From contig CAYOAM010000003.1 in NCBI GenBank assembly GCA_964402035.1, positions 162,657 to 226,656 on the forward strand: a stretch of DNA of 64,000 nucleotides, in the 5' to 3' direction. How positions within the stretch are numbered: the stretch's first letter is position 1; each line of letters starts with the position of its first letter. A model generated the notes under the pieces. The model saw nothing but the letters and a program-made list of their open reading frames with translations. It did no database searches and was not told where the DNA came from. Origin of the DNA: an uncultured Candidatus Saccharibacteria bacterium (lineage in GTDB: Bacteria; Patescibacteriota; Minisyncoccia; Phycocordibacterales; UBA918). This document shows, one piece after another, positions 29,883 through 53,901 of the stretch. The translations under genes and the position numbers were made by a program.

Positions 29883-29886
29883 GCCG

Positions 29887-30963: not shown

Positions 30964-30965
30964 TT

Positions 30966-31169: not shown

Positions 31170-31374
31170 CAGAACCTTTACAGAGCATAATAGAATCCCT
31201 GCTTGTCAGGGGTTTTGTTATCATTGTGGGACAACTTTCCTAATAGTTGTCCTCCAGTTTATAAGATTTTGAACCCCAAATACTGCCATCTATCGACTTT
31301 TCCGTCATTGGTGGTATTTTTGTTTTACGTGCTATGACGCAAAAACGCCAAGTACCTAAGGAAAAAATCCAAAT

Positions 31375-33023: not shown

Positions 33024-33134
33024 ACGATTCCAACTGGGTGACTGTTGTTGCAGTATCTGTTCCTCAGTTTTGGCGCACTGAGTTGAGTAACAGTTATTGT
33101 AGAAGGTGTCCTACAAAATTGAGGGACAATAACA

Positions 33135-36142: not shown

Positions 36143-38080
36143 ATGGAATATCTTTCCGTTCTCAACGCCCAACAAAAAAGTGCGGTCACCAAAACAGAAG
36201 GTCCCGTACTCGTCTTAGCTGGAGCAGGGTCAGGAAAGACCCGCGTGATCACGTACCGTATTTTGCATCTTATTGAACAGGGTATTGCTCCCGACAAAAT
36301 TCTCGCCGTCACCTTCACGAACAAGGCTGCCAAAGAAATGCGTGAGCGCGTTTTGGCGCTCGCGCATAGCTACCCTCACATAGAAAGAATCTTTATGAAC
36401 GTGCAGCCGACGATCGCTACCTTCCACTCATTGGGCGTTATGATGCTGCGCGAACGACATAAAGAGCTAGGAGTTAAGCGCTATTTTACGATCTACGACC
36501 GCAGTGACTCCCTAACCGCCATCAAACAGGCACTCGAAGCTTTAGGCTACGGGGCTAAACAATTTGAGCCCCGAAAGATCTTGAGCCACATCTCGAAAGC
36601 AAAAGGGGATGCGCACACCGCACAAACATACGGCGAGCAAGCAAAAACCGCCATGGAGAAGGTGGTGCGTGATATATGGAATCGGTACGACACCATTCTC
36701 CGAGAAAATGAAGCATTTGATTTTGATGACCTGCTACTCCGAACACTCAATATGCTTCGCGCAAACCCGCAGGTTCTTAAAGAGTACCAAGATCGCTTTC
36801 ACTATATTCATATCGACGAATATCAGGACACCAACAAAGTGCAGTACGAAATCGCTCGTCTTCTTGGCGGTGGCACGGGTAATATCTGTGCTGTCGGCGA
36901 TGTCGACCAGAATATCTATTCATGGCGTGGTGCAGATATGAACAACATCCTTCAGTTTGAACGTCATTTCAAGGGTGCCGAAGTCATTCTGCTCGAGGAA
37001 AACTACCGTTCCACCCAGACCATTATTGCCGCTTCGAATGACATTATAGAAAAAAATACGGCACGTATCCCAAAGACTGTTTTTACCAAAAATGCTGAGG
37101 GTGAGCCGATTTCTCTCTATGCTGCATACAATGAAGAGGAAGAAGCGGTCTACGTAGCGCGCGAAGCACAAAAGCTGATCCGAGATGGATGTGATCCATC
37201 CGCAATAGCGGTGCTCTTTCGAGCCAATTTTCAATCCCGCATTCTCGAAGAGTCGTTCCTTGCATACAATGTTCCGTACCAAATGCTCGGTACACGATTT
37301 TTCGAACGCAAAGAGATTAAAGATGTACTCTCGTATGTGCGCCTAGCTCTCAATCCTGCGAGCACCAATGATCTTTCTCGTGTCATCAATATTCCTCCAC
37401 GTGGAATTGGCAAAATAACGCTTCTTAAACTGCTCGAAGGCCAGCGAAACTCCATAACCGGCAAAACGATAGCAAACATCGAAGCATTTGAGGCGATTAT
37501 GGAGCAGATCCGCGCAACGCTCACCAAAGGACCACTAAGCAATGCACTTCGTGAACTCGTTAAAATAAGTGGCCTAGAAGCAGAGCTTAAACAGGGCGGG
37601 GAAGCGGAACTCGAACGACTGGAAAACATCCACGAACTGGTGTCACTTGCTACAAAATATGATAGCTACGAAGGTCTTGAGGGCGCAGCGGCACTTCTTG
37701 AAAATGCGGCTCTACAAAGCGACCAAGACGCACTTGATCCAAAAGATACGAGCAAGGATGGAGTCAAACTGATGACTGTACACGCCGCAAAGGGTCTCGA
37801 ATTTGCCTATGTATTTATAACCGGTATGGAAGAAGGGCTTTTCCCCCACGAACGACTCTCGGATGAACGTATCGACGAGGAAGAAGAGCGCCGTCTCTTC
37901 TATGTAGCACTGACCAGAGCTCAAAAAAAGGTATATTTGTCCTTTGCAGGTATCCGTACGGTCTTTGGGAGCCAACGGATCAATGCACCCTCATCATTTA
38001 TTGACGATATCAGTGAAGCGCATATGATGTCGGCAAATCCTTCGGAAACTGGCCATGAGCGGACAGTATACTTGGACTAA
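36143..38080 (+). CDS. pcrA: ATP-dependent DNA helicase, UvrD/PcrA family
   Basis: Walker A 'AGAGSGKTRV', 'DEYQDTN', 'VGDVDQNIYSWRGA', 'TVHAAKGLEF'. 645 aa. Confidence 0.9.
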   Translation: MEYLSVLNAQQKSAVTKTEGPVLVLAGAGSGKTRVITYRILHLIEQGIAPDKILAVTFTNKAAKEMRERVLALAHSYPHIERIFMNVQPTIATFHSLGVMMLRERHKELGVKRYFTIYDRSDSLTAIKQALEALGYGAKQFEPRKILSHISKAKGDAHTAQTYGEQAKTAMEKVVRDIWNRYDTILRENEAFDFDDLLLRTLNMLRANPQVLKEYQDRFHYIHIDEYQDTNKVQYEIARLLGGGTGNICAVGDVDQNIYSWRGADMNNILQFERHFKGAEVILLEENYRSTQTIIAASNDIIEKNTARIPKTVFTKNAEGEPISLYAAYNEEEEAVYVAREAQKLIRDGCDPSAIAVLFRANFQSRILEESFLAYNVPYQMLGTRFFERKEIKDVLSYVRLALNPASTNDLSRVINIPPRGIGKITLLKLLEGQRNSITGKTIANIEAFEAIMEQIRATLTKGPLSNALRELVKISGLEAELKQGGEAELERLENIHELVSLATKYDSYEGLEGAAALLENAALQSDQDALDPKDTSKDGVKLMTVHAAKGLEFAYVFITGMEEGLFPHERLSDERIDEEEERRLFYVALTRAQKKVYLSFAGIRTVFGSQRINAPSSFIDDISEAHMMSANPSETGHERTVYLD

Positions 38081-38084
38081 CATT

Positions 38085-38882
38085 ATGGAAAAATTTACTG
38101 CCAAGAAATCGTTGGGACAGAACTTCCTAACCAATCCCAAAATAGCCGAGCGCATAGCGCAGGCAGCGGATATCAAGACGGGGGAGACGGTACTTGAAAT
38201 CGGCCCAGGGACGGGGATGTTGACGCGCGCCCTCCTAAAGGAGGGCGCGCGTGTCATCGCGCTCGAAGCCGACAGTCGCACATTGCCAATCCTCAACGCC
38301 AGTTTTGAAAAAGAGCTATTAGATGGTCAACTCACCCTCATACACGGAGATGTCAGGACATACGATATAGCCAGTGTTTTAAAAGGTTTTTCGTATAAAG
38401 TCGTCGCCAATATCCCGTACTACCTCTCGGGTATGCTCTTTCGACTTTTTCTTGAAAATACTGCTGACCAACCCTCCACAATCGTCTTTTTAGTCCAAAA
38501 AGAGGTCGCGGAGCGTATTGTACGCAGCAAAAAGGAGTCCATCCTCTCACTTTCTATAAAGGCGTACGGTGAACCGAGCTTCGTAGCCACGGTTTCTCGA
38601 GGAAATTTCTCCCCGCAGCCGAATGTCGACTCTGCCGTCCTTAAAATAAGCGATATTTCCAAAAATAGCTTCAAAAGCGTCCCCGAGTCGGCATTTTTCA
38701 CCATCCTAAAGACCGGATTTGCAGCAAAACGCAAACATCTTGCCGGCAATCTATCGCTCTTAATGCCTCGCGCAGATATCCTTGCCGCATTTGACGCACT
38801 TAAACTGCCACATGATGTCCGCGGTGAGGACATACACATCGACACATGGCTGGCGCTTGCTGAAAAATTGAAGTCTGCTTAA
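38085..38882 (+). CDS. rsmA: 16S rRNA adenine dimethyltransferase KsgA/RsmA
   Basis: 'KKSLGQNFL' and 'VLEIGPGTGMLT' SAM motif. Probable start is the Met at 38085, overlapping the end of pcrA. Confidence 0.9.
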   Translation: MEKFTAKKSLGQNFLTNPKIAERIAQAADIKTGETVLEIGPGTGMLTRALLKEGARVIALEADSRTLPILNASFEKELLDGQLTLIHGDVRTYDIASVLKGFSYKVVANIPYYLSGMLFRLFLENTADQPSTIVFLVQKEVAERIVRSKKESILSLSIKAYGEPSFVATVSRGNFSPQPNVDSAVLKISDISKNSFKSVPESAFFTILKTGFAAKRKHLAGNLSLLMPRADILAAFDALKLPHDVRGEDIHIDTWLALAEKLKSA

Positions 38883-39017: not shown

Positions 39018-39944
39018 TTGCCCCTGCTATACTTAGGGCAACGCATGACCGTGAATACGACACTACGGGTGGGGGGTGCAATGCTTGTTGGCATTGCTCT
39101 TGTTGGTGGAGCACTCCTCTTGAGTAAAAAACAAACAGCCGCAGAATATTCTGCGGCTGTTGTTGTGGCAGACAAACCACGAGCGTATCAAGAAACGCGC
39201 GATGGCGATGGCGATGGGCTTCGTGATTGGGAAGAAGAGCTGCGTGGTACTGATCCAAAAACCCCCGATGATCTTTCTAAAAAACCTGAACCTGTAGAAG
39301 AAGCTCCTGTCGAAGAGCTTCCAAACACCATGACCAATCAGTTTTCAAAAGACTTTTTCGCATACTACCTCAAACACAATGCCGGGAATGCCGCAATGAC
39401 GCAAGAACAAAAAGATGCATTTATAAAGCAGGCGGCCGCGGCTGCCGAAAAGCAAGTAGATAGCAAGCTTCTAACGACTACTGATATTATTACTTCCAGT
39501 GAAAATAATTTTGCTGTTTGGCGCGACTATGGCAACACTGTTGCAATGATTATGCAACGTTACCCTGTAAAAAATGAAAACGAATTATCAATTTTTAGCC
39601 GAGCAATACAATCGAACGATCCATCCATCATAGAAGAACTTGGCCCTATAGAAAAATCATATAACGACACCATTGCGGATCTGCGAACCCTTCAAACCCC
39701 CACACTATTTCTCAATGAACATCTCAATCTTCTAAACCGGATGATTTCGGTTCATAATACAGTGATTGCTATGCAGAATGTCTTCAGTGATCCATTACCT
39801 GCTCTGGTACGTACACAACAGTATCAAGATGAGGCACAGCAACTATCAAATGCCCTTGCAAGCATGCATGCTCTACTCACAGCTCAAGGTGTCACCTACA
39901 CCTCCGATGAACCAGGAATCTTCTTTGAAGCATTTCAACCTTAG
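39018..39944 (+). CDS. Hypothetical N-terminally membrane-anchored protein
   Basis: TM helix 'GGAMLVGIALVGGALLL' followed by a ~270-aa soluble domain. First gene of the T4SS-like cluster. Confidence 0.45.
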   Translation: MPLLYLGQRMTVNTTLRVGGAMLVGIALVGGALLLSKKQTAAEYSAAVVVADKPRAYQETRDGDGDGLRDWEEELRGTDPKTPDDLSKKPEPVEEAPVEELPNTMTNQFSKDFFAYYLKHNAGNAAMTQEQKDAFIKQAAAAAEKQVDSKLLTTTDIITSSENNFAVWRDYGNTVAMIMQRYPVKNENELSIFSRAIQSNDPSIIEELGPIEKSYNDTIADLRTLQTPTLFLNEHLNLLNRMISVHNTVIAMQNVFSDPLPALVRTQQYQDEAQQLSNALASMHALLTAQGVTYTSDEPGIFFEAFQP

Positions 39945-39947
39945 CGT

Positions 39948-41480
39948 ATGAGACTTTCCAGAAAAGAACAACTACACTACTTCCTCTCAACTGTTCTTGC
40001 TGTTCTGTTTATTATTACCCCGCTTTACACACTCATCCCTACACGAGCAAATGCTATTACGGTAACCGTTAATGGAGGAACGGGGACAGTTCCAGATATT
40101 ATAACCGCAAAAAATACCACCGTTTCTGCTGCCGCAAACACCGCAACCGCAAAAAGTACTGGCTCAATTGCACTCAAGGAATTAAAAATGGATGGGGTCT
40201 TTAATGCTTTGGCAAAAATGGTGGTGCAGGGCATGGTGCGCAGTACCGTGGCATGGATTAATTCGGGTTTTAAAGGCAGCCCTATGTTTGTGACAGACCC
40301 CGGTCAATTTCTCCTTAATATTGCAGACCAAGAAGCGGGGAGAATGCTGTACAACAGCGAAGACTTAAATTTTCTCTGCAGACCAATGAACATCCGTATT
40401 GCACTTGATTTCTATTATCGCTCCTCACGAAATCAGCTACCCGTACAATGTACACTTTCTGGAGCCTTAGGAAACGTGCAACGTTTTATGGAAGGCAATT
40501 TCCTCGCTGCTGGTTGGCCTGGATGGTTATCGGTAAGTCTCAACCCCACCAATCACCCGATCGGTGGCGCATTTGCTATGGAACGAAAACTCGAAACGAA
40601 CATAGCCGCGTTACAAAATCTCAATATTATGGAATGGGGCTGGGCGCGCGGATTCCTCTCAACAAAGAGCTGCGATGATGGGCCGAATGGAAAGATCAAT
40701 TGTCGAACCATCACGCCTGGCGATACAATCGCATCTGCACTCAATTACAACTTAACTTTGCCTGCAGAATCACTTATATCTGCGGATGAAATTAACGAAG
40801 TTGTTGGTGCACTCTTTGCTCAACTCGCTCAACAAGCACTCACGGGTGCGGCAGGTGTCTTTGGCCTCACAGACAGCGGTTCAGGATCAAGTGGGTTTTC
40901 TGATGCAGGATTTGGTGGAACAAACGGAGGTCTTGGGACAGCAGCATGCAATGGGCTTTCATATCTCAATCAATTGAGTGACCCCCGATGCAACCTCAAT
41001 CTAGGATCAGGAAGTATTGCAACTTCTACTGACGATGATTTTATCGGTAAGGCCATTCATGACGAGCAGGCATACCAGCGCATGCATCAAAATATTATAG
41101 ACGCCGCAAATGATACTATCGCTGAAGCAACTGAACGTGGAAAGGAATGTTCCGGAAACACATCAGTCATCAGAACTGCATCCCGTTACGTTGAAACTGC
41201 CAGCTCTTCAATGTTGACCTCAAAAGTAACTGAGGCAAAGTTGGCCGCTTTAGCTATACGCGATGCACAGGGGACGGTGGAAGAACGTATTGCGGCATTG
41301 AGCGCTTTTAATGAACTTTCAATATCGGGCGGCCTCCATTCATCAATCACCAACGTGACAACTTCATTTGAAACAGCGGATGTTATAAAAAATATACAAG
41401 AATTAAGAGCTACTATCACTGATTGTCCTCGTGATAATAGTAACAACAGCAACAGTGGAAGTTCAGGAGGCCGTGATTGA
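39948..41480 (+). CDS. Hypothetical secreted Gly/Ser/Asn-rich protein
   Basis: N-terminal signal/TM 'YFLSTVLAVLFIITPLYTLIPTRANA'. 510 aa, low complexity. Confidence 0.45.
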   Translation: MRLSRKEQLHYFLSTVLAVLFIITPLYTLIPTRANAITVTVNGGTGTVPDIITAKNTTVSAAANTATAKSTGSIALKELKMDGVFNALAKMVVQGMVRSTVAWINSGFKGSPMFVTDPGQFLLNIADQEAGRMLYNSEDLNFLCRPMNIRIALDFYYRSSRNQLPVQCTLSGALGNVQRFMEGNFLAAGWPGWLSVSLNPTNHPIGGAFAMERKLETNIAALQNLNIMEWGWARGFLSTKSCDDGPNGKINCRTITPGDTIASALNYNLTLPAESLISADEINEVVGALFAQLAQQALTGAAGVFGLTDSGSGSSGFSDAGFGGTNGGLGTAACNGLSYLNQLSDPRCNLNLGSGSIATSTDDDFIGKAIHDEQAYQRMHQNIIDAANDTIAEATERGKECSGNTSVIRTASRYVETASSSMLTSKVTEAKLAALAIRDAQGTVEERIAALSAFNELSISGGLHSSITNVTTSFETADVIKNIQELRATITDCPRDNSNNSNSGSSGGRD

Positions 41481-43372
41481 ACATGAAAAAATTACTCCCA
41501 CATATTTGCGCATGTCTCATCATCGGTATTGGGTTTTTTGTGGCTTCAGAAATCTTTGCACAGGCCCCCGACGCAAAGGTCACAGCTCCTACGCAAGCAA
41601 AACCAGGCGCTGCGGAACGCTTCTTTTACTCCGCCCTTGAAGGAACAGTAAAATGGATCGCATTTGCCATTTTGCAATTCTTCATATGGCTAACATCTAT
41701 TACCGGCCTTCTACTCAACATGTCTATCGACTGGCTCATCATCGGGATGGGAGATATGGTGCGTACAAAGGGTTTTGGAATTGCCATTGATAAACTTTGG
41801 ACTATCATCCGAGATATTGTAAATATCTGTTTCGTATTCGGACTCGTGTACATTGGCATTACGACTATTGTCAAAAGTGAAGCTTCGGGTGCTAAACGAC
41901 TACTCTCATCGCTCATTATTTCTGCTCTACTCGTAAATTTTAGTCTGTTCTTTACAAAAGCAATTATTGACCTATCAAACATCACTGCAGACAACATCTA
42001 TCGTCAGATGATTACTGGTTCATCAAAAGATGGTATATCTGGAGAATTTGTAAGTCAAATGGGCCTCACCTCTATTGTCGGTGGAGGAAAATCAAAACAA
42101 TCAGAAGAGATACTCAATAAAGTACTCGCAGAAGGTGGAGGTATACCCTTTATGATTGTGTTTGCGTTAGGGTCCGGCATTCTACTATTTAAACTTGCAT
42201 TTGCATTTGGCATTGGGGCATTTCTCATTCTCATTCGCTTTGTCATGCTCATACTGCTCATGATCTTTTCTCCGATCGCATTCTTGCCCGAAGTGCTACC
42301 AAACCTTGGAAAGTACCGACAACAATGGTGGGATACGCTTTTGAGCCAAGCATTCTTTGCGCCTATTTATATTTTTGGCATTTACCTTTCACTCATCGTG
42401 CTTCGGTCAAATCCTGTGGCGCTTGGCGACCGCAACCTGATAAATTTGTTCACAGAAAGCGCTGTCGCCGGTACTGTACAAGTGCTGCTGTTTTATCTCA
42501 TAGCTATCATCATGATAATTGCCACAACCACTATGGCAAAAAGCATGAGCACCTCAGGCGCATCTATTGTTGGAAAAATCAGTGAAGGTGCAGCAAAATA
42601 CGCCCGAAAGACAGTTGGTAAAACAATTGCCGGAGCTTCAGTTGCAGGTGGAATTGTCGGTAGAAACACCGTCGGACGGGTAGGATACAATCTATCAAAA
42701 AAGGAAGGTCTCTTGAAGGCCGCAGCGGGTGGCGGGTTAACAGGATGGGCTGCACGAAGAGCGGTTGATACCACTCGCGCTGCAGCAAAGGGCAGCTTTG
42801 ATGCTCGTGCACTACCTGGCATGAAAGGTGCTGCTGGTCTGGTAGATGTAGACCTCGGCAAACCTGGAAAAGGAAGCTACGAAGCACGCACTAAAGACAT
42901 TAACAAGAAAGAGCTTGAGTATGCAGAGTCATTGAACGTCGAAAAAGGGGCTGATGTTGAAAAAGTTAAGCATAAGATCGATGGGCATAAAACATATATT
43001 AAGGAAAAGCAGAGGGACTACAATTTGGGGGTCAAGAATGGCGCATCTGAAACAGAGAAACAAAAAATCCGTGATGAGATAGCTATTGCCAAATCTGAAT
43101 TGGAGGACGCAAACAGAGAACTTATTGAAGTAAAATCAGCAAACCAGAGGAAATATGCAAAGACTTTACAAGATGGTCAGTTAGGATTCATGGGTCTACC
43201 TGGGACAAGTATTTTCCCCGCCAGGACTAAAAAAGAGAATGCTGCTGCAGCAAATCATATTCGTGAAGGGATAGAGAAAAAGAAAAATAAGACTGATACC
43301 GACCGCTTGATTGATGCCACCAAAGAATCTGCCGAAAAAGCTTCAAAAAATGCTAAGGAAGATGCTCATTAA
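41477..43372 (+). CDS. VirB6/TrbL-like polytopic membrane protein
   Basis: Signal peptide plus ~6-7 TM helices, followed by a ~270-aa Lys/Glu-rich hydrophilic tail. It overlaps the previous gene by 4 nt. Confidence 0.5.
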   Translation: MNMKKLLPHICACLIIGIGFFVASEIFAQAPDAKVTAPTQAKPGAAERFFYSALEGTVKWIAFAILQFFIWLTSITGLLLNMSIDWLIIGMGDMVRTKGFGIAIDKLWTIIRDIVNICFVFGLVYIGITTIVKSEASGAKRLLSSLIISALLVNFSLFFTKAIIDLSNITADNIYRQMITGSSKDGISGEFVSQMGLTSIVGGGKSKQSEEILNKVLAEGGGIPFMIVFALGSGILLFKLAFAFGIGAFLILIRFVMLILLMIFSPIAFLPEVLPNLGKYRQQWWDTLLSQAFFAPIYIFGIYLSLIVLRSNPVALGDRNLINLFTESAVAGTVQVLLFYLIAIIMIIATTTMAKSMSTSGASIVGKISEGAAKYARKTVGKTIAGASVAGGIVGRNTVGRVGYNLSKKEGLLKAAAGGGLTGWAARRAVDTTRAAAKGSFDARALPGMKGAAGLVDVDLGKPGKGSYEARTKDINKKELEYAESLNVEKGADVEKVKHKIDGHKTYIKEKQRDYNLGVKNGASETEKQKIRDEIAIAKSELEDANRELIEVKSANQRKYAKTLQDGQLGFMGLPGTSIFPARTKKENAAAANHIREGIEKKKNKTDTDRLIDATKESAEKASKNAKEDAH

Positions 43373-43374
43373 TT

Positions 43375-44031
43375 ATGGAACAATCAATTCAAAAAATTAT
43401 TTCAGAGAGATACAATACACTCCCCATCTCACTCAAAGATTTTATTTCTAATCCCACCCTTGAAGAAACCCTGCATACAATCGCCCAAAAATATAATCTC
43501 AACAAAGATACAGAAGTATTACTTGAAAATGAAGTAATGTTTGTACTACTTGGTTTTGAACCCAGTGAGGAATTTATGGGACAGCTAGCAATTTGCCTAC
43601 CTATTGACCCCACGACCACCATGAATATTGCGGACGAAATAACAACATCGATATTCAATCACATTGGGCCTGAACTCCACGCACTTGATACTGAATACCT
43701 TCAAGATGGGGCGATTGTTGACAGCGCCGAGTCTATTTTGATGCCAACATCTTCCGAAGAAACACCGACTCAAACGCCAGAAATCCACACGGAAACAGAG
43801 GAAGAATCAACATCAGTACCAGCTCAACTGCAACCAACAGACGAAATAACTGTACCCGCTCCTGCGGCAGAACCAGCACCATCAGTGTCAGAGGCTGAAG
43901 TGCCTGCACCTGCGCCAGAACCTGTTCCAGTGGAACCACCTGAACCCGTTATTGTCCCTTCATACGCCAAACCACTTACCGACACACCGCGATATACGGA
44001 CGACCCATATCGCGAATCGCCACACTCATAA
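43375..44031 (+). CDS. Hypothetical acidic protein with Pro/Ala/Glu-rich C-terminus
   Basis: ORF with a 'PAPAAEPAPSVSEAEVPAPAPEPVPVEPPEPV' tail. Confidence 0.4.
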   Translation: MEQSIQKIISERYNTLPISLKDFISNPTLEETLHTIAQKYNLNKDTEVLLENEVMFVLLGFEPSEEFMGQLAICLPIDPTTTMNIADEITTSIFNHIGPELHALDTEYLQDGAIVDSAESILMPTSSEETPTQTPEIHTETEEESTSVPAQLQPTDEITVPAPAAEPAPSVSEAEVPAPAPEPVPVEPPEPVIVPSYAKPLTDTPRYTDDPYRESPHS

Positions 44032-44042
44032 CAAAACGCAGT

Positions 44043-44495
44043 GTGAGTCACACAAGAAATGCATTCATGACATATACGGCATGTATAATACTAGTACCTA
44101 TGCGCTTTGAAGTACCACAATTTATTGAAATTGAAGACAAAATTTTTGGGCCATTTACCTGGAAACAATTTGTCTACCTATTGGGTGGGGCAGGAGCGAT
44201 CTTTATGCTCTTTGTGTGGTTACCATTTATTATTTTTGTTGTCGCCGCAGCACCAATCGTCGCACTCACTGCCGGACTTGCTTTCTACAAAGTGAACAAT
44301 CGCCCCTTTGCAGCCATCTTGGAATCATTTGTAACGTATTTCATGAATGCGCGCCTCTATCTGTGGAAAAAGCAAGAGCAAAAAGTGGTTCCGACCGGGG
44401 GTGGGGCTCCGCAAACATACCTTCCACCATCAAAGACAACGCTTTCAACACTTTCGCGCCAACTAGAGTTAAATGCGCTCAGGGGCAAAAAATAA
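44043..44495 (+). CDS. VirB3/PrgI-like small 2-TM protein
   Basis: 'FEVPQFIEIEDKIFGPFTWKQFVYLLGG' followed by two hydrophobic helices, typical of the VirB3/TcpE/PrgI family. Confidence 0.5.
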   Translation: MSHTRNAFMTYTACIILVPMRFEVPQFIEIEDKIFGPFTWKQFVYLLGGAGAIFMLFVWLPFIIFVVAAAPIVALTAGLAFYKVNNRPFAAILESFVTYFMNARLYLWKKQEQKVVPTGGGAPQTYLPPSKTTLSTLSRQLELNALRGKK

Positions 44496-45129
44496 TATGG
44501 CACATAGCGAAGCAACACAAAAATTTGTATCTCTCAAGGAAATCCGCGATGGTATTGTTATATTAAAAGACGGTAGTCTCCGCGCTATCCTTATGGCTTC
44601 CTCCATAAATTTCGCGCTCAAGTCCGGCGATGAACAGCAAGCGATCTTGCGACAATTTCAAAGTTTCCTGAATACACTTGATTTTTCGTTGCAGCTTTAT
44701 GTCCAATCGCGCGAACTCAATATCGAACCATACCTCGCACTCTTGGGATCCTTTGAGGCGGGACAAAAAAATGACCTCATGCGCGTACAGCTCCGAGAAT
44801 ACATGGGCTTTATCCGCAAGTTTACTGAGGATGTTGATATTATGACCAAGAGTTTCTTTGTGGTCGTGTCATACACCCCTGCGGCCGTCGACGTCACCAA
44901 GGGACTTAAAAGTCTCCTTGGTGGCCCAACTCAAAAGAAGAATCTCTTGCCGACAGAAATATTTGAAGAACACAGAAGCCAACTCGAGCAACGCATAGCT
45001 GTGGTGGAACAAAGTCTTCGCCGCATCGGTATTCGCACCGCAACCTTGGGTACGGCCGAAGTTGTCGATCTTTTTTATCATATTTTCAATCCCAACGAAG
45101 GAAACAGGGCACTACCCACAGCAACATGA
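44473..45129 (+). CDS. VirB4-like N-terminal domain protein (separate ORF)
   Basis: 'LKEIRDGIVILKDGSLRAILMASSINFALKS' resembles the VirB4/TraE N-terminal domain. Its stop overlaps the next start (ATGA). Confidence 0.45.
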   Translation: MRSGAKNNMAHSEATQKFVSLKEIRDGIVILKDGSLRAILMASSINFALKSGDEQQAILRQFQSFLNTLDFSLQLYVQSRELNIEPYLALLGSFEAGQKNDLMRVQLREYMGFIRKFTEDVDIMTKSFFVVVSYTPAAVDVTKGLKSLLGGPTQKKNLLPTEIFEEHRSQLEQRIAVVEQSLRRIGIRTATLGTAEVVDLFYHIFNPNEGNRALPTAT

Positions 45130-46934
45130 GCATTTTTGATATTTTTAAAAAGCCAAAAGAGACCGAGGAGTCACTTGCACTTCCCAAGGATATTTATGAT
45201 GCGAGCACTCTTGCTTTGGAAGATGTGATCGCGCCATCTGCGATAGGGGTGAGTCCACGCCAGCTCAACATCAGCGGCAAATTGACCCGAACTTTTTTTG
45301 TGGTTGCGTACCCGCGATCACTCACGGAAAGCTGGCTTGAACCGATTCTCGATCTTGAACGAGTATTTGACCTTTCTATTTTTGTGCATCCGATGGACAC
45401 GACCGAGGTTTTGAAGAAGTTTCAAAAGAAGGTTGCTGAGGTGCAGAGTCAGATTTCCACCCGCGAAGATAAAGGGTTTGTTCGTGACCCCCAACTCGAA
45501 GCGGCATACAAAAACCTTGAAGATCTCCGTGACAAACTCCAACAAGCCGAAGAGCGTCTCTTTGATGTCGGCCTCTATATCACTATCTATGGTGACCATG
45601 AAGAGCAGCTTGAAAAGGCAGAGAGTGAGATCCGCACCATCCTCGACTCGCGCTTGGTGTACATGAAGCCAGCACTTTTCCAGCAGGAGCAAGGGTTTAA
45701 AAGCACAATGCCCTTGGGGACGGACGAACTTTCGGTCCACAGCAAGTTTAATTCTGATCCACTTTCGAGCTTTTTCCCATTCACCTCTTTTGACCTCACG
45801 GCAGATACCGGTATCCTCTACGGCATCAACCGCCACAACTCATCACTGGTTCTCTTTGATCGTTTTTCGCTCGAAAACTACAACTCCGTCACTTTCGCAA
45901 CATCGGGTTCTGGAAAATCGTACGCTGCAAAGCTCGAAATCCTCCGTTCACTCATGTTTGGTACCGAAGTTATCGTGATCGACCCTGAACGCGAATACGA
46001 ATATCTCGCTGAAGCGACCGGCGGCAGATTTTTCAATATTTCTCTCTCATCTCCCCACCACATCAATCCCTTTGATCTCCCTGAACTACTTGCTGACGAA
46101 TCACCCGAAGAAGTGCTCCGCTCCCACATCATCAATCTCGTCGGACTTTTCCGCATCATGCTTGGGGGACTCACACCCGAAGAAGATGCAATCGTCGATC
46201 GCGCGATCGCAGAAACGTATGCGCTCAAAGACATCACGCCGAACAGTGGTTTTGCAGGCCATGAGCCACCACTTCTTTCGGATTTTGAAATGGTCCTAAG
46301 CGGTATGGTGGGAAGTGAATCTCTCGTGACACGCCTTTCAAAATACACTCGCGGCACATGGGAAGGGTTTATCAACCGACCCACAAATGTCGATATCAAC
46401 CAGCATTTCGTCGTATTTTCTTTGCGCGAAATTGAAGACGAACTCAAAACGGTCGCCATGTACATCATCACGCACCACATTTGGAGTGCAATCAGGCGTA
46501 CGCTTAAGAAGCGTTTGCTTGTCATAGACGAAGCGTGGTGGATGATGAAAAGTGAAGATACCGCATCATTTCTTTTTGGCATCGCCAAGCGTGGACGCAA
46601 GTACTACTTGGGGCTTTCCACCATCACCCAAGACGTCAACGACTTTCTCAATTCACCATATGGTGTCCCCATGCTCACAAACTCCTCACTACAGCTTTTG
46701 ATGAAGCAGTCACCAACGACGATCGACTCACTACAAAAAGCGTTCAATCTCACCGACGAAGAGAAGTTCCTACTCCTTGAGTCGGGGGTGGGGGAAGGGA
46801 TATTCTTCGCAGGACTCAAACATGTCGCGATCAAAGTTATCGCTTCCTACACCGAAGACCAGATCATCACGTCCGATCCTTCGCAGATTCTTCAGATCAA
46901 GAAGGCTCGTGAGGAGCTGAATATGTCGAAGTAA
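45126..46934 (+). CDS. VirB4/TrbE-like conjugation ATPase (C-terminal ATPase domain)
   Basis: Walker A 'FATSGSGKSYAA', Walker B 'RLLVIDEAWWMM', 'GRKYYLGLSTITQ'. Confidence 0.65.
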   Translation: MSIFDIFKKPKETEESLALPKDIYDASTLALEDVIAPSAIGVSPRQLNISGKLTRTFFVVAYPRSLTESWLEPILDLERVFDLSIFVHPMDTTEVLKKFQKKVAEVQSQISTREDKGFVRDPQLEAAYKNLEDLRDKLQQAEERLFDVGLYITIYGDHEEQLEKAESEIRTILDSRLVYMKPALFQQEQGFKSTMPLGTDELSVHSKFNSDPLSSFFPFTSFDLTADTGILYGINRHNSSLVLFDRFSLENYNSVTFATSGSGKSYAAKLEILRSLMFGTEVIVIDPEREYEYLAEATGGRFFNISLSSPHHINPFDLPELLADESPEEVLRSHIINLVGLFRIMLGGLTPEEDAIVDRAIAETYALKDITPNSGFAGHEPPLLSDFEMVLSGMVGSESLVTRLSKYTRGTWEGFINRPTNVDINQHFVVFSLREIEDELKTVAMYIITHHIWSAIRRTLKKRLLVIDEAWWMMKSEDTASFLFGIAKRGRKYYLGLSTITQDVNDFLNSPYGVPMLTNSSLQLLMKQSPTTIDSLQKAFNLTDEEKFLLLESGVGEGIFFAGLKHVAIKVIASYTEDQIITSDPSQILQIKKAREELNMSK

Positions 46935-46941
46935 AACCGTT

Positions 46942-47499
46942 ATGAACAGTAACACCACAGAGAAAAAGATATCGACCGGACTTGGTATTATTTTTCTTAC
47001 TATGGCGGTAATAATCGATGTTCTCCAGTTCTTCCTTATGTTTTTAATTTTCACGGGAATTTTGGCCGTATTAGGTATAGCTTTATCGTGGTTTCTTGCA
47101 GCCGTACTTATACCTCTTTTCATGATGACTATGATGTCACATCATGTACCCCTTTTTTCCGGATCCAAAATGAAGCGCACTGGTGCAACAATTATTGCAG
47201 AATTCATACCAATTTTTGGCAATTTCTGCCCATCGCTCTCAATATGGATATATCTCACACTGCGAGAGAACAAAAAGACGATGGTTAAAATAGCCACAGA
47301 GGCACGGGCACAAGAGGAAAAAGAGCTCAAACGGAATGCTACAATTAGAAGGAGGCTTGCGCAACAAGCTGAAGCCTCTGCAATAGAGGTACCGCAAGGC
47401 ACGAGAGACAACAGCCCTGCAGTTCGACGCAGGTACAAAGATGTCAACTATAGACCCGACCCTACGCACGAAGATCTTACGTTTAAGCAAGCCGCTTAG
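46942..47499 (+). CDS. Hypothetical polytopic membrane protein
   Basis: Three or four TM helices followed by a basic C-terminal tail. Confidence 0.4.
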   Translation: MNSNTTEKKISTGLGIIFLTMAVIIDVLQFFLMFLIFTGILAVLGIALSWFLAAVLIPLFMMTMMSHHVPLFSGSKMKRTGATIIAEFIPIFGNFCPSLSIWIYLTLRENKKTMVKIATEARAQEEKELKRNATIRRRLAQQAEASAIEVPQGTRDNSPAVRRRYKDVNYRPDPTHEDLTFKQAA

Positions 47500-48484
47500 T
47501 ATGCATACACTCCGAATATTTTTAGCACCCATTGCCGGAATAATAGTTTTTGCATTTCTGTTCATTACGGCAGTTTCTGTACATGCGCAATTTCAGGCTC
47601 CCGGTGTGCCTTCAGCGCACATTGAACTAAGTCCAACCTATCCAAGAGCAGGCGAACCGTTTACCGCCCGACTTGCAGACTACGGATCGCAAACAAATGA
47701 TACGGTGAGTTGGCTCATTGATGGAGTGCTTTTGAGTGACAAACAACGCGTTATTGAATTAACAGCACCACTCCTAGGGGTGCCTATGACCATAGAGGCA
47801 CGCATAACCACTTCTGGTGGCGCTACCGAAAGCACTAGAATAGTGGCAGTACCTTCAGACATCGACATTATTACCGAAAGCAACACAACAGCGCCGTATT
47901 TTTATAAGGGGCGGCGCACACCGAGTACGGGCAGTGACGCGCATCTCGTAGTGATTCCACACTTATTTTCAAAAAAAGGCACCCGAATTCCAACTTCTGA
48001 AGTAGAGTACACTTGGAGTATCAATAACGGCCTTGTAAATACGGACCGCAAGGACGGCGCCTTGGATACTACACTTTCAAGTGTCGGGGATTCGTTAGTC
48101 CGTATTACGGCTGATGCACCTGCGTATGGAGTACGGTACGAAAAAACATTCACTATTGAATCGGGTGAGCCCCAGCTAGCATTTTACGTATACAACGCAC
48201 TCACGGGACTTTCTCAAAATGCTATCCAAGATAACTATACCGAAGCAGTGAGAGAAATTTCAGTCCGAGCACAGCCTTACTTTATGGATCGAAACGTGTA
48301 CAGAAATGTGGAACAAGGATGGAGCATCAACGGAGAGCGTACACAAAATTCTGGCGGCGACCAAGAATTTATTACACTCCAATCAGGCGGCAATGGGGGT
48401 GTGACAGATGTTGGTTACTCGATCCGAAACCTGTCTGCGCTTTCACAATATGCCGCTAATCTATTTCGTATAGCTTTCAAATAA
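47441..48484 (+). CDS. Hypothetical secreted protein
   Basis: N-terminal TM/signal 'LAPIAGIIVFAFLFITAVSVHA'. Confidence 0.4.
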   Translation: MSTIDPTLRTKILRLSKPLSMHTLRIFLAPIAGIIVFAFLFITAVSVHAQFQAPGVPSAHIELSPTYPRAGEPFTARLADYGSQTNDTVSWLIDGVLLSDKQRVIELTAPLLGVPMTIEARITTSGGATESTRIVAVPSDIDIITESNTTAPYFYKGRRTPSTGSDAHLVVIPHLFSKKGTRIPTSEVEYTWSINNGLVNTDRKDGALDTTLSSVGDSLVRITADAPAYGVRYEKTFTIESGEPQLAFYVYNALTGLSQNAIQDNYTEAVREISVRAQPYFMDRNVYRNVEQGWSINGERTQNSGGDQEFITLQSGGNGGVTDVGYSIRNLSALSQYAANLFRIAFK

Positions 48485-48487
48485 TCT

Positions 48488-49453
48488 ATGAAGTTCTATT
48501 TCTACAGTGGTACCCAATTCAGGAAATATGTATGCTGTTGGTTGCTTTTTGGTATTTTTTTGGTGGCCCCGCTAATATCTATTGCACAAACTGCTCCACT
48601 GCCACCTCCGCCAGCACCCTCTGTGGCAGCACAGCCGGCGTCAAAAGAGCCAGCATCTGTTACAACTGGTCCCGTTCAGAACCCTCCACTTCAAAAGTTT
48701 CAGCCACTCGCTGGGATACCTGGGGTTACTGATTCCTTGACTCTTGCCGGTTTGTTACAAAATCTGTATCGACTTGCTATCGTTATTGGGGCCCTTATTG
48801 CGGTCATAAAAATTACCCTCGCTGGATTTTCGTATATGAGCTCTGACTCAATCGGAAATAAGAGTAGCGCGAAGGATGACATCGCGTCATCGTTACTTGG
48901 TCTCGTTATCATCCTCGCTACGGTACTTATTTTGGAAACTATATTTGGCACCGTAAACTTTAATTTCCTTCAGAATGCAGAAACCGTGACGTTATCAGGG
49001 AGAGAAACGGTGGTCAGTAATCCAATTACTTCTTACGACATTAAACCTGAATATGGATGTAAACAACTGGAAGCGACAGGTAAAGAATGTCCATCCGGTA
49101 ACGTAGGAATCTTCACTAAGAGTGGTATGGGTTGTGCGCCAAGTGGTTCCGTCCCGCTAGTACCAGGACAATCCGAATTTAAATACATGGATGAATCCAC
49201 ATGCTGGAGTGATGAGACAAGGTTCGCTGGATATCGTCTCCAAACCAATGAGCTAAAAACACTCGACGGGTACATGAATATAAAAGAGAGTGATCTACCC
49301 TCAGGAATGACGATGGATAAGTACAGAAAGGAAAAATTAGAGCCTGCATGTAAAAGTATCAACCCAAGTGCAGTGGTGACCATGGAGTGGAGTAGAGCAA
49401 AGTATATTGTGACTGGAGATACTACGTACCACTTTACGTGTACCAGTAAATAA
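48488..49453 (+). CDS. VirB2/TrbC-pilin-like protein with Cys-rich C-terminal extension
   Basis: After the signal/TM comes 'LAGLLQNLYRLAIVIGALIAVIKITLAGFSYM' then a short loop then 'LLGLVIILATVLILETIFG', which is the two-helix T4SS pilin architecture. A ~180-aa C-terminal extension carries 8 Cys. Confidence 0.45.
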   Translation: MKFYFYSGTQFRKYVCCWLLFGIFLVAPLISIAQTAPLPPPPAPSVAAQPASKEPASVTTGPVQNPPLQKFQPLAGIPGVTDSLTLAGLLQNLYRLAIVIGALIAVIKITLAGFSYMSSDSIGNKSSAKDDIASSLLGLVIILATVLILETIFGTVNFNFLQNAETVTLSGRETVVSNPITSYDIKPEYGCKQLEATGKECPSGNVGIFTKSGMGCAPSGSVPLVPGQSEFKYMDESTCWSDETRFAGYRLQTNELKTLDGYMNIKESDLPSGMTMDKYRKEKLEPACKSINPSAVVTMEWSRAKYIVTGDTTYHFTCTSK

Positions 49454-49454
49454 T

Positions 49455-50651
49455 ATGAAAAACGCACTTATTATCGTCCTTATTGTCATCATCCTCATTC
49501 TCGGGGGGATTTGGGGGTACCTGTTTCTCAATGGGGCGCCAAAAAGTCTCTCTGACGTGGGAGATAATGTCTTTGGCACGAGTCCCGCGGTCGTCCCCGT
49601 TGCCACAGATACTGAGGTTACACCAGGTCCTGTCGATAGTGGCGCGAGCCGCACCGTAAAAACAGACGCAATTCTAGCGAAACTCACCACTCGTGCGGTC
49701 GCTGGAGCAATGATCAGCACCTCAAGCGTCGATACCTTCATCCGATACGCAGAAAAGGGCACCGGCTACATTTTTGAAATTGACCTAAAGACTGGTACCG
49801 AAATCCGCATCTCAAATAAAGTAATTGCGCGTGCAGTGGAGGCATATTGGTCACCAACCGGGAATCATGTCGTCTTTATAACAGACGCACAAGGAAAGAG
49901 GGACGAGACACTACTCGGGACGCTCAGCATCAAAAAAGATACAAAAGAAACCGTACTCGATACCGAATCAATAGCACAAGGATCTAATATTGCATTTACA
50001 CGAAATGGTAAAGAACTCCTCTACACAGAAACAAATCCGAGCGGTGGCACAACCTCATTTAGTCGCACTCTCGCAACGGGGGACACAAAAACGCTCTTCA
50101 CCGTACCTTTTGCGGAAAGTACCGTACTGTGGGACCTCTGGGGAACGAGTGCCCACTATGTCTATACAAAACCAGCGCTTGGTTTCAATGGCTATCTCTA
50201 CAAGGTCACCAAAGGCGGTCTTGAGAAAATAGACGAAGCATCAGCACTTTCTGCTGCACGACTCGGTACCAGCACTCTTATTATCAACAAAAATTCTGGT
50301 AAAGGTCCGTATAGCCTCCTTGTTGATACGGTAAAAAATAACGGCATTTTCTTGAATATTCAAACACTCTCCGAAAAATGTGCAAAGATTGGCATCTCAA
50401 TATGGTGCGGAAGTGATGCTGCAGCAAATAGCAACACATTCCCTATATCGTGGTATCAAGGAGAAGTATCCTACGCTGATCTTATTTGGAACGTCGACAG
50501 TATGACTGGGGAAGGGAGCATTGCTGTTGACCCTGAGGCATTTATACGCGAACAGATCGATGTGACAGACATGATGACGTCGGACGAGGGACCACTGATC
50601 TTTAGAAACAAGCGCGACGATACACTGTGGATCTTCAACCCACCTAAATAA
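49455..50651 (+). CDS. Hypothetical membrane-anchored protein with large extracytoplasmic domain
   Basis: N-terminal TM 'LIIVLIVIILILGGIWGYLFL' followed by a ~370-aa soluble region. Confidence 0.4.
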   Translation: MKNALIIVLIVIILILGGIWGYLFLNGAPKSLSDVGDNVFGTSPAVVPVATDTEVTPGPVDSGASRTVKTDAILAKLTTRAVAGAMISTSSVDTFIRYAEKGTGYIFEIDLKTGTEIRISNKVIARAVEAYWSPTGNHVVFITDAQGKRDETLLGTLSIKKDTKETVLDTESIAQGSNIAFTRNGKELLYTETNPSGGTTSFSRTLATGDTKTLFTVPFAESTVLWDLWGTSAHYVYTKPALGFNGYLYKVTKGGLEKIDEASALSAARLGTSTLIINKNSGKGPYSLLVDTVKNNGIFLNIQTLSEKCAKIGISIWCGSDAAANSNTFPISWYQGEVSYADLIWNVDSMTGEGSIAVDPEAFIREQIDVTDMMTSDEGPLIFRNKRDDTLWIFNPPK

Positions 50652-50801: not shown

Positions 50802-51569
50802 TTATGCAACTTTTTCGGCGGTAACGTCCACTTCACGATGTCGATCAGGGATTTTGGCACGCACTACGTACTCTTGCGCAATAGACATCACATTGCTGAC
50901 GACAAAATAGAGCGCTACAGCGGCAGAAAAATAGTAAGCGGTAAAACCGATCATGACGGGCATAGCGTATTTCATCTGCAACTGCATGCTTTGCGTGAGA
51001 TCTTCCTTAAAGTTCGGCGTCGTGCCTGTCTTTTTCTTGATGGGTGGCAAGGACATATGACCAAAAATGTATTGTGAAATACCCGCAAGTAGGGCGAGCA
51101 CGATACTTTTTGAGCTCATATCAACAAGTCCTAAAAAGAGCATACTGATCGTTTCTGGGGCAGGGACAAAACTATACAAGAGCGCAGTATTAATACCGGG
51201 CAATTTAACACCACCGCCACTTGAGACCGCAAAATAGAGCGCAATGATGATCGGGATTTGAATCAGTGCGAAAAAAATACTCGCAAATGGGTTCACACCT
51301 GCAGATTTGTACGCAGCCATTGTCTGCCGTGCCAATTCTTCTTTCGCATCCTTGTACTTCTCCTTGATACGGGTGAGCTCAGGCTCTAGGAAACGCATAG
51401 CGTGCTGCGCGTGAGCCGCTTTGATCGAAATCGGAAGCATGATTATTTTAACTGCTATCGTGAGTAAAATAATCGCGATACCGACATCTGCATTCTGAAC
51501 ATGGCCCACAAGAAAGATAAGTCCGTTGTATATCGGATCAAAAAATACGCCGTGCCAAATGGTGCCCCA
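50802..51569 (-). CDS. yidC: Membrane protein insertase YidC/Oxa1 (short form)
   Basis: 'ILLTIAVKIIMLPISIKAAHAQHAMRFLEPELTRIKEKYKD' plus a conserved C-terminal TM bundle. The start was chosen at the internal Met to avoid overlap with rnpA. Confidence 0.85.
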   Translation of the reverse strand, partial: WGTIWHGVFFDPIYNGLIFLVGHVQNADVGIAIILLTIAVKIIMLPISIKAAHAQHAMRFLEPELTRIKEKYKDAKEELARQTMAAYKSAGVNPFASIFFALIQIPIIIALYFAVSSGGGVKLPGINTALLYSFVPAPETISMLFLGLVDMSSKSIVLALLAGISQYIFGHMSLPPIKKKTGTTPNFKEDLTQSMQLQMKYAMPVMIGFTAYYFSAAVALYFVVSNVMSIAQEYVVRAKIPDRHREVDVTAEKVA

Positions 51570-51591
51570 CATAATTAGTATGGTCGTTATT

Positions 51592-51936
51592 CTACCTCGA
51601 ATGTGACGTACGTGAAAGTAGTGATGATCGAACGTCACGAAGCGACTGCCGAACCGACACCATAGGATGCTGTTTTAATAGCGGCTGCACTAGGACGATA
51701 TATGTACCTCCACGTGGGTTTTCGCGCTCGATACCTGCCAAAAGACTATATATCTGGCGCCGTATTCGATTTCGAGTACTCGAAAGGAGGCTCACCTTTT
51801 TTGAAACCACGACTGAAACATGAAGGCTCGGTGACGGTTGATAGAGCATCGTAAAGCCGAGCCCAGAAGCACGCACTGAGCGCTTAAAAATTTTATTAAA
51901 CTCTTCCCGCCCCAGACGAGAACGTTTTGGCAGCAT
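51592..51936 (-). CDS. rnpA: Ribonuclease P protein component
   Basis: 114 aa, basic, 'LPKRSRL...F..VF...VRASGLGFTML', sitting between rpmH and yidC. Confidence 0.8.
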   Translation of the reverse strand: MLPKRSRLGREEFNKIFKRSVRASGLGFTMLYQPSPSLHVSVVVSKKVSLLSSTRNRIRRQIYSLLAGIERENPRGGTYIVLVQPLLKQHPMVSVRQSLRDVRSSLLSRTSHSR

Positions 51937-51937
51937 A

Positions 51938-52075
51938 TTACACCGCTAAGCGTGCACGCCCTTTTTGTCTTCGTCGACGCAAAAGCGCCTTACCTTGAGG
52001 TGTTGCAGTACGAGCCAAGAAACCGTGCGTGGTTGCACGCTTTCGTTTCTTCGGCTGATAGGTTCTCTTTGACAT
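51938..52075 (-). CDS. rpmH: 50S ribosomal protein L34
   Basis: Manually translated from the minus strand: [45 protein letters not shown]. It is below the ORF-track length cutoff. Confidence 0.9.
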
Positions 52076-52265
52076 ACCGGAAAGAGTACACTACTTTCTT
52101 TTGATTTTCAACTTGCCACAAAAAGGGGCTTGACGAAGTGCGTGTATACACGCTTTCAACAGGTTATACACATTATAATATTTATGTGGCGCAATCATTC
52201 ATTTTTTTTGTAATAGTTTACAGTTACTCATCGAAGAGTATAATGCTTTAGAAATTTAGCGCATT

Positions 52266-53645: not shown

Positions 53646-53901
53646 AGCTGTGTATATCCCTGTGTATGTTGTGCACATATCTACGGGGAAAAGATAGCGG
53701 AAAAGTTTTGTCGACGACCAAAAAAGAGGAGAGTTGTACACACGGAGTGATTTTGAAACATAAACGCAGGATAACTTTCACACAACTACCGAATAGATTG
53801 TGAATAAAAAATCCATAGTATAAAACATATTATTTAGAAATCCCCATATCAACAGGATTAATAGTAAAAATACTTTTTAAATAGAAAATTAAAGAAAAGT
53901 T
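53646..53901. promoter_or_regulatory. Candidate oriC / DNA-unwinding element (AT-rich dnaA-dnaN intergenic region)
   Basis: The stretch 53790-53900 is very AT-rich. Degenerate DnaA-box-like 9-mers occur here (ttgtacaca, tttcacaca). In the rpmH-dnaA spacer there is TTATACACA at 52164-52172. Confidence 0.4.

Follow-up and report, generated by a model that had tools for sequence, protein, structure and literature searches.

What a conjugation-like membrane machine does when no DNA-processing partner is encoded beside it is the question raised by a gene cluster in the 64-kb stretch of DNA analysed here (the window), which belongs to a 461.7-kb contig (ENA ERZ3430527, NODE_4). The cluster consists of 11 co-directional genes on the + strand, g1 to g11, which run unbroken from 39045 to 50651 (the first open reading frame, ORF, starts at 39018) and encode proteins of 299, 510, 629, 218, 131, 218, 602, 185, 327, 321, and 398 aa, respectively. 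With a probability of roughly 0.82, it encodes a vertically inherited chromosomal type IV secretion system (T4SS) of the Patescibacteria clade, in the arrangement of Paceibacteria, which serves as a conduit for macromolecules at the contact with a host cell and not as a conjugation apparatus. Conjugation is disfavored because a relaxase, a coupling protein, and an oriT-type partner are lacking beside it and because the cluster evolves like an essential housekeeping machine. The initial annotation had described a cluster like those of type IV secretion and conjugation, without relaxase, in an episymbiont. This interpretation is correct, yet the system, present beside the replication origin in almost all ultra-small bacteria of the candidate phyla radiation, has already been described in 2023–2025, and the present copy is an ordinary member. 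What is added here are fold or family descriptions for the accessory genes g1, g2, g8, g9, and g11.

The co-directional and tightly packed layout was confirmed by our ORF list and by an independent public gene call for the same contig, from which the gene starts were taken. Both give 11 genes and not the twelve previously counted; a twelfth was sought in each and not found. With the public starts, a strict 4-nucleotide (nt) overlap (ATGA) exists at g6/g7, and g5 and g6 overlap by 23 nt. The remaining junctions are gaps of 1–7 nt, except for 68 nt between g4 and g5, so that of several 4-nt overlaps claimed earlier one holds and the others do not. The genes are apparently packed as a single operon between ksgA and yidC-rnpA-dnaA. 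Promoter- and terminator-like sites across the cluster are not enriched over shuffled sequence, and hence the operon boundaries are supported by spacing alone. The 68-nt gap before the prgI-like g5 (44032–44099) is the sole sizeable intergenic gap of the cluster. It contains GTATAAT 12 nt 5′ of the ATG, a possible internal promoter that is absent from the list of the generic promoter scan.

Motor, platform, and pilin

The VirB4 ATPase is encoded by g7 (45126–46934, +), whose 602-aa product comprises the middle and C-terminal P-loop domains. It matches positions 177–733 of the NF045971 profile, the Gram-positive conju_CD1110 family (E = 2.6e-110, 369.9 bits; cut-off, 325 bits), as well as PF19044 (E = 5e-25). 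The Walker A and B motifs noted before were located as ATSGSGKS (residues 258–265) and LLVIDE (464–469), and both are invariant among relatives. As this NF045971 match lies above the cut-off, g7 counts as a FATA-type VirB4 ATPase. The N-terminal domain of VirB4 exists as a gene of its own, g6 (44473–45129, +), which is directly upstream of g7 and TrsD/TraD-like. Its NCBIfam matches stay below the cut-offs; they are to the N-termini of VirB4 in the Mbov_0397 (E = 1.2e-8) and CD1110 (E = 5.7e-6) families and to TrsD (NF041427, E = 4e-6). On VirB4 models, it covers approximately the first 130–230 positions. BLASTP aligns it with residues 35–189 of a 783-aa clostridial VirB4 (E = 3e-7), and the public annotation includes a precomputed match to the TraC-like PF26593. 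g6 was detected in 78 of 80 related loci and is always an ORF apart from g7; hence, the division of VirB4 is not a frameshift. The initial annotation, which had listed a single VirB4 gene, was right about the ATPase, but two genes make up the protein.

Immediately before this pair, g5 (44100–44495, +) encodes a 131-aa protein of the PrgI/VirB3 family with two transmembrane (TM) segments. It matches PF12666 at E = 4.3e-9 and 37.2 bits (Pfam cut-off, 27 bits), in agreement with the VirB3/PrgI-like assignment made from the peptide IEDKIFGPFTWKQ, which is present in this ORF (44043/44100–44495). The VirB6/TrbL-like polytopic membrane protein is g3 (41483–43372, +). It has about nine TM segments and a hydrophilic, Lys/Ala-rich C-terminal extension of about 230 aa, as an "extended VirB6". 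g3 itself has no direct Pfam or NCBIfam match, and a PDB profile search returned nothing credible. Its earlier assignment is nonetheless upheld through its syntenic orthologues, 7 of 59 of which match TrbL/VirB6 PF04610 (best E = 2e-8), together with the TM segments. By hhalign, g3 weakly matches PrgH (E = 2.8e-3) and TrwI (E = 1.2e-3).

The pilin is g10 (48488–49453, +), a VirB2-like T4SS pilin of 321 aa. It is composed of a signal peptide, a Pro-rich linker, a two-helix pilin core at residues 85–149, and a variable C-terminal extension of about 170 aa that contains Cys. The two peptides quoted in the initial annotation as a TrbC/VirB2 signature, LQNLYRLAIVIGALIAVIKITLAGF...LLGLVIILATVLIL, are present in this ORF. 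g10 scores 23.5 bits against PF18895 (T4SS_pilin), about 3 bits under the cut-off of 26.6 bits. Its positional orthologues support the family assignment, as PF18895 is matched by 45 of 47 and TrbC/VirB2 PF04956 by 9 of 47. Conservation is confined to the core (tblastn coverage, 0.26), and for this reason the orthologues vary in length from 134 to 555 aa. g10 is the sole pilin ORF of the window, and exactly one occurs in 65 of the 69 related loci that have any. Profile searches placed neither the pilin-like nor the VirB3-like ORF in an unrelated family.

DNA-processing partners were sought with Pfam and PHROG scans of the larger window ORFs and with phmmer, using a clostridial transfer-gene set, against all six-frame ORFs; on this contig, the relaxase and VirD4 searches covered the window only. 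Relaxase, MobC, VirD4, and SLT hydrolase were all missing from the window, and no homologue of any of them lies within ±10 kb of virB4 in 80 related loci. A VirD4 of the CD1115 family gave no phmmer match in the window or in these loci, and Pfam scans of the larger window ORFs gave no type IV coupling protein (T4CP) or FtsK-like ORF. The earlier statement that relaxase, coupling protein, and VirD4 are missing from the window therefore agrees with the Pfam, PHROG, and phmmer results. Within the cluster, no match to SLT, CHAP, or NlpC indicates a VirB1-type hydrolase. No cluster protein matches VirB11 or the outer-membrane core proteins VirB7, VirB9, and VirB10 in Pfam or NCBIfam, and the components specific to Ced (CedA/CedA1/CedA2) or ComB (ComB2-4, ComB6-10) were not detected in the cluster with the same libraries.

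Conservation and known relatives

We compared the locus with at least 80 loci, one genome per species, retrieved by a VirB4 scan; their bins are Kaiser-, Campbell-, Nomura-, Wolfe-, Zambryski-, Taylor-, and Paceibacteria. Presence and identity were scored by tblastn with all window proteins. The order uvrD-ksgA-g1-g2-g3-(g4)-g5-g6-g7-(g8)-g9-g10/g11-yidC-dnaA-dnaN is kept across the 80 loci, so the comparative synteny proposed earlier as a check shows a conserved gene order. The only common rearrangement is a swap of g10 and g11, whose order is reversed in about 14 related genomes (our loci L003, L005, L035, L043, L046, and others). Among the 80 loci, g7 was detected in 80, g5 and g6 in 78 each, g11 in 70, g9 in 67, g3 in 62, g2 in 54, g10 in 50, g1 in 34, and g4 in 26.

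The motor is strongly conserved. VirB4 has a median identity of 73% within the narrow range of 71.5–76.6%, compared with 59% (55–79%) for DnaA, and its identity exceeds that of DnaA in 49 of 62 loci. Median identities are 54% for g6, 46% for g5, 52% for UvrD, 48% for KsgA, 45% for YidC, and 37% for DnaN. As judged from these alignments, such conservation marks a machine that is inherited vertically and under apparently strong constraint, and not a mobile element or a relic. More than 8,000 VirB4 relatives are in the database. The best 120 listed are of about 600 aa and 74–87% identical, with one identical sequence, and every named source among them is a Patescibacteria lineage (Parcubacteria, Kaiserbacteria, or Pacebacteria). 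These relatives and the 80 loci bear out the episymbiont context (candidate phyla radiation/Patescibacteria) presumed by the initial annotation. The best plasmid-borne VirB4s are Gram-positive and 28–37% identical to g7; specifically, g7 shares 31% identity with VirB4 of a C. perfringens plasmid, 25% with PrgJ, and 22% with TrwK. Sequence homology thus points to a monoderm (FATA-type) ancestry of the motor.

Upstream, the cluster is flanked by uvrD/pcrA and ksgA (rsmA) (36143–38882, +), assigned from their translations, public Pfam calls, and synteny in relatives. Downstream, public calls and synteny identify the origin region with yidC (-), rnpA (-), dnaA (+), and dnaN (+) (50802–55002), which is syntenic in at least 60 related loci; there, dnaA starts at a median of 5.5 kb past the end of VirB4. 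The position between uvrD-ksgA and yidC-rnpA-dnaA-dnaN means that the cluster is chromosomal and origin-adjacent. Its GC content (0.44–0.47) is the same as that of the flanks. Past dnaN follow a class A penicillin-binding protein gene, ruvB, and the gene of a PilB-type ATPase (T2SSE; 60472–62151, -), which lies 9.8 kb downstream of the cluster, close to the 10 kb given before.

These features agree with those of a published group. A survey of Patescibacteria detected VirB4 in 2,417 of 3,035 genomes, and nearly all of these proteins fell into a single clade within MPF_FATA (Quiñonero-Coronel et al., 2025; PMC12102498). In that clade TrsD is the most abundant associated component, PrgI/VirB3, VirB6, and PF18895/PF04956 pilins are found near virB4, VirB8 and VirB1 are rarely found, and the Paceibacteria locus is associated with dnaA, dnaN, ksgA, and rnpA (PMC12102498). 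The present locus likewise combines VirB4 and an adjacent TrsD with PrgI/VirB3, a VirB6-like protein, and a PF18895 pilin, has no relaxase or T4CP nearby, and sits on the chromosome beside dnaA, dnaN, ksgA, and rnpA. It does not differ essentially from the surveyed type; the neighbors unassigned there receive folds (g1, g9, g11) or families (g2, g8) here. Genetic evidence, namely essentiality, is available within this kind for one member alone, the T4SS of Southlakia epibionticum ML1 (SEML1_0006-0019). It has in common with our cluster the monoderm type, a pilin, the epibiont lifestyle, and the absence of a recognizable relaxase or coupling protein from the cluster. Unlike here, it belongs to the class Saccharimonadia and has six divergent pilins instead of a single one. 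Its peptidase and lysozyme genes are directly downstream of virB4, whereas the nearest M23/LysM gene here is 3.4 kb upstream of the cluster.

The Gram-positive plasmid systems pGO1, pSK41, and pIP501 (TrsC-TrsD-TrsE/TraC-TraD-TraE; MPF_FATA) share with the cluster the order VirB3-like, TrsD-like, VirB4, a monoderm envelope, and the lack of VirB7, VirB9, and VirB10. However, relaxase, T4CP, VirB1 hydrolase, and VirB8-like proteins all belong to those systems and none of them was found here, whereas the VirB2-like pilin present here is absent from those systems. The pCF10 Prg/Pcf and clostridial CD1110 systems resemble it in a CD1110-family VirB4, an upstream PrgI-family protein, and the weak likeness of g3 to PrgH. 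In contrast to the split g6/g7, their VirB4 is one protein of about 780–800 aa, and no counterpart was found for the pCF10 proteins PrgK (VirB1), PrgL (VirB8-like), and PcfC (T4CP) or for its relaxase. With the Gram-negative VirB/Trw systems (MPF_T, R388), the cluster shares the two-helix VirB2-type pilin, VirB3, VirB4, and VirB6, and the secreted helical g2 ahead of the VirB6-like gene resembles the virB5-virB6 order of Gram-negative operons. Unlike R388, it has no VirB7/VirB9/VirB10 core, VirB11, VirB8, or VirB1; g2 has no detectable similarity to TrwJ/VirB5, and VirB4 is 22% identical.

Function at the host interface

The initial annotation favored host attachment or DNA uptake over conjugation. 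Interaction with a host is the published view (PMC12102498, PMC10633639, PMC12857230), but the DNA-uptake part is weakened by the comEC result from Southlakia described below. Transposon sequencing in Southlakia found a homologous cluster, including its pilins, essential for epibiotic growth, and the system was noted to be without coupling and relaxase proteins (Wang et al., 2023; PMC10633639). According to a 2025 review, essentiality and potential pili set patescibacterial T4SSs apart from all other monoderm T4SSs (PMC12857230). In a 2026 preprint, tubular structures that may be T4SS pili are described as reaching from a cultured parasite into its host, and the tubes are proposed to take up host RNA (bioRxiv 10.64898/2026.06.21.733656).

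A conduit built from the present genes may work as follows. PrgI/VirB3 and the VirB6-like protein would form a membrane platform, on which hexamers of VirB4 (g6 and g7) would dock in a single membrane. VirB4 would power the extraction of pilin from the membrane and its polymerization into a tube or pilus, which would cross the wall. Accessory proteins would assist in the crossing, namely the Ig-like g9, the propeller protein g11 of TolB type, and two helical ones, g1 and g2. Anchored by TM segments and lying in the wall zone, these proteins could take over the functions of VirB8 and VirB1, which are missing here. The tube or pilus would contact the host cell and act as a conduit either for the export of effectors or for the import of host material. 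In a bolder version, g2, g8, g9, and g11 would be a wall-spanning and host-contact module specific to Patescibacteria that turned a Gram-positive conjugation core into an import conduit for macromolecules of the host cytoplasm, for example RNA, with g2 as a VirB5-like tip or host-recognition factor; this version is doubtful.

Several points weigh against the host-contact conduit. Its function is deduced wholly from homology, context, and work in another class (Saccharimonadia), and a pilus, a substrate, and a direction of transport are here only proposed. The assignments of g10 and g3 come from sub-threshold or transitive matches, the accessory proteins have generic fold assignments only, and confidence in the g2 model is low. 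For the crossing of the wall, the cluster was found to encode neither a VirB8-like nor a VirB1-like protein. Furthermore, VirD4-like (T4CP) genes occur in most Patescibacteria genomes, mostly far from virB4 (PMC12102498), and 64 kb of 461.7 kb were inspected.

The last point would also suit a working machine for conjugation or DNA export whose relaxase and VirD4 are encoded elsewhere and which mobilizes the chromosome or an island at 22–33 kb of the window. The VirB3/VirB4/VirB6 core does descend from Gram-positive conjugative systems, and this mobile island, with its serine integrase gene, is located 6 kb upstream of it. We regard conjugation as very unlikely, since relaxase, MobC, and T4CP are missing from the window, the island, and ±10 kb in 80 genomes, and only 109 relaxases were found in the 3,035 surveyed genomes (PMC12102498). 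In Southlakia, moreover, the t4cp gene is non-essential while the T4SS is essential (PMC12102498), and the oriC position, the kept synteny, and the conservation of VirB4 above DnaA are unlike those of mobile-element genes. The same conservation makes it scarcely credible that the cluster is a decaying, functionless remnant of an integrated conjugative element near the origin. The missing relaxase, T4CP, VirB1, and VirB8 and the VirB4 in two ORFs could be read as signs of decay, but all 11 ORFs are intact and tightly packed, GC is as in the flanks, the split VirB4 is the conserved state, 80 species share the gene order, and VirB4 is more constrained than DnaA. The remnant was accordingly rejected on the composition and conservation data.

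Uptake of environmental or host DNA as a nucleotide source, by a competence T4SS like Helicobacter ComB or archaeal Ced, is quite unlikely. Those systems also have no relaxase or T4CP, nucleotide synthesis is absent in these organisms (PMC10633639), and the locus of the ABY1 class lies beside comF, recG, and radA (PMC12102498). g7 matches CedB partially (E = 6.5e-9, 35 bits against a cut-off of 700), and likewise CedD, far below threshold in both cases. In Southlakia, however, competence needs type IV pili and ComEC, and deletion of comEC abolishes competence and leaves the cells viable, whereas the T4SS is essential (PMC12857230). ComB- and Ced-specific components are missing from the Pfam and NCBIfam matches, as given above, and comM is disrupted by an insertion in the window where the T4SS is intact. 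Alternatively, a VirB4-driven pilus might only tether the episymbiont to its host, with nothing passing. The VirB2-like pilin with its variable C-terminal extension, the adhesin-type domains on some g2 orthologues, and the absence of a substrate-recruiting ATPase in cis would fit such an organelle. Adhesion alone is nevertheless unlikely, as type IV pili already adhere in Saccharibacteria (PMC12857230), a PilB gene is present 10 kb away, and VirB6 and VirB3, as parts of a channel, have been kept and are conserved. We therefore rank the macromolecule conduit at the host interface first, followed by adhesion only, DNA uptake, conjugation, and the relic.

The T4SS is probably central to host exploitation by a very large, mostly uncultured bacterial radiation, and in Southlakia, the single member with genetic tests, it proved essential. 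The present locus brings no new principle but shows the rigid Paceibacteria version, with the same order in 80 species and a VirB4 more conserved than DnaA. Its conserved partners without known counterpart (g2, g8, g9, g11, and g1) are targets for work on the cargo and on the crossing of two envelopes. Residual interest lies above all in the g2 family upstream of the VirB6-like gene, and in the unusually strong constraint on VirB4.

Accessory and neighboring genes

g2 (39948–41480, +) encodes a signal-anchored secreted protein of 510 aa, predicted to be all-alpha, and is located immediately 5′ of the VirB6-like gene. The protein has four conserved Cys, the motif WINSGFxGxPxFVxD, and a C-terminal helical bundle, and no match in Pfam, NCBIfam, or PDB profiles. 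Its family is large, with 6,149 representatives of 50%-identity clusters at E ≤ 1e-3 and 3,672 at E ≤ 1e-30. Some orthologues carry extra Ig-like, F5/8-type-C (discoidin), or fn3 domains, and these added adhesin-type domains are consistent with surface exposure of g2. The AlphaFold2 (AF2) model has a mean confidence (pLDDT) of 57.6 and is confident for residues 365–490 only, the C-terminal bundle. Foldseek of this model against the PDB returned generic designed bundles alone (E = 0.27 or worse). g1 (39045–39944, +) is a bitopic membrane protein whose AF2 model (pLDDT 79, and above 90 in the C-terminal domain) shows a TM helix at the N-terminus, the TSP3-like Ca-binding motif DxDxDG, and a four-helix bundle outside the cytoplasm; a PDB profile search gave nothing credible.

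The products of g9 and g11 are TM-anchored proteins with recognizable beta folds. g9 (47501–48484, +; 327 aa) has tandem Ig-like beta domains outside the cytoplasm. It matches the Ig-like domains of phage T4 Hoc by PDB profile (E = 1.4e-6), and its orthologues match BiPBP_C (17/58) and Ig_3 (10/58). g11 (49455–50651, +; 398 aa) is a TolB-like beta-propeller, whose profile, built from 67 orthologues, matches TolB propellers at E = 2.8e-6 to 3e-4. It has an N-terminal TM anchor and two invariant Cys, and a few orthologues match PD40 or the peptidoglycan-binding PG_binding_1. g8 (46942–47499, +; 185 aa) is a small polytopic membrane protein with at least three TM segments and the motifs A..D.lQ (in TM1) and E.IP..N.LPwwT. 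It has no match in Pfam or NCBIfam and no tblastn match in the 80 loci. A small polytopic ORF nevertheless occupies its position just after virB4 in most loci, and the family is fast-evolving. An iterative hidden Markov model unites 48 of 50 ORFs at this position, a count that the hydrophobic composition may inflate, although the motifs are shared. The cytoplasmic g4 (43375–44031, +; 218 aa) has no TM segment and no Pfam, NCBIfam, or PDB match. In an alignment of 26 orthologues, about 100 aa at the N-terminus form a conserved domain, which a Pro-rich linker joins to a DPYRE motif that is nearly invariant at the C-terminus; this tail resembles a short docking peptide without known counterpart.

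Alignments of g1, g2, g4, g8, g9, g10, and g11 were compared by hhalign with PrgC/D/E/F/G/H/I/K/L/M and PcfA of pCF10, and a second set comprised TrwJ (VirB5), TrwG (VirB8), TrwN (VirB1), TrwL, and TrwM of R388. g1, g2, g4, and g8–g11 did not resemble PrgC/D/E/F/G/K/L/M, PcfA, or the R388 VirB1, VirB5, or VirB8 proteins. In particular, the comparisons of g1, g2, g9, and g11 with PrgK, PrgL, PrgD, TrwG, and TrwN were negative. As g2 did not match TrwJ, and g1, g9, and g11 matched neither PrgL nor TrwG, the ideas of g2 as a VirB5-like and of g1, g9, or g11 as a VirB8-like protein have no sequence support and were rejected. g1 as an NTF2-fold VirB8 was also rejected, as the fold of its model is a four-helix bundle.

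A wall hydrolase with two LysM domains and a Peptidase_M23 domain is encoded 3.4 kb upstream of the cluster, beyond uvrD-ksgA (34662–35642, -). Nine related loci with a long enough flank have it at the same relative place (about -9.6 kb from virB4), and a tenth has it at about -2.0 kb. It may be the "VirB1-like" neighbor reported for Paceibacteria, or merely part of a conserved chromosomal neighborhood. As to the related genomes, many bulk metagenome-assembled genomes titled "uncultured Candidatus Saccharibacteria bacterium" (L001, L003, L004, and others) carry the Paceibacteria-type locus, with VirB4 72–76% identical and synteny as in Kaiser- and Nomurabacteria bins, and these titles are probably generic or wrong.

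Farther upstream, a 599-aa ORF (19227–21026, +) directly follows the PNPase gene. Its product has one central TM helix and a Pro/Ala-rich N-terminal half, and no Pfam or PHROG match. The Mg-chelatase-like competence gene comM (21479–33737) is interrupted by an island of about 10.7 kb into an N-terminal part (21479–22423) and a C-terminal part (33135–33737). The island has a GC content of 0.38–0.42 against 0.47. Its genes encode an Eco57I-type N6 methylase, a replication-O-like protein, a LexA/S24 repressor, an M78-like regulator, and a large serine integrase (28125–29882), and Pfam and PHROG scans found no structural phage genes and no transfer genes in it. The island was considered as the carrier of the missing relaxase or T4CP and rejected on its content of integrase, repressor, replication-O-like, and methylase genes. 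Just past the methylase gene, it contains a LOOT RNA (Rfam RF03000; 25106–25221, +) that scores 71.4 bits against a gathering cut-off of 46.4.

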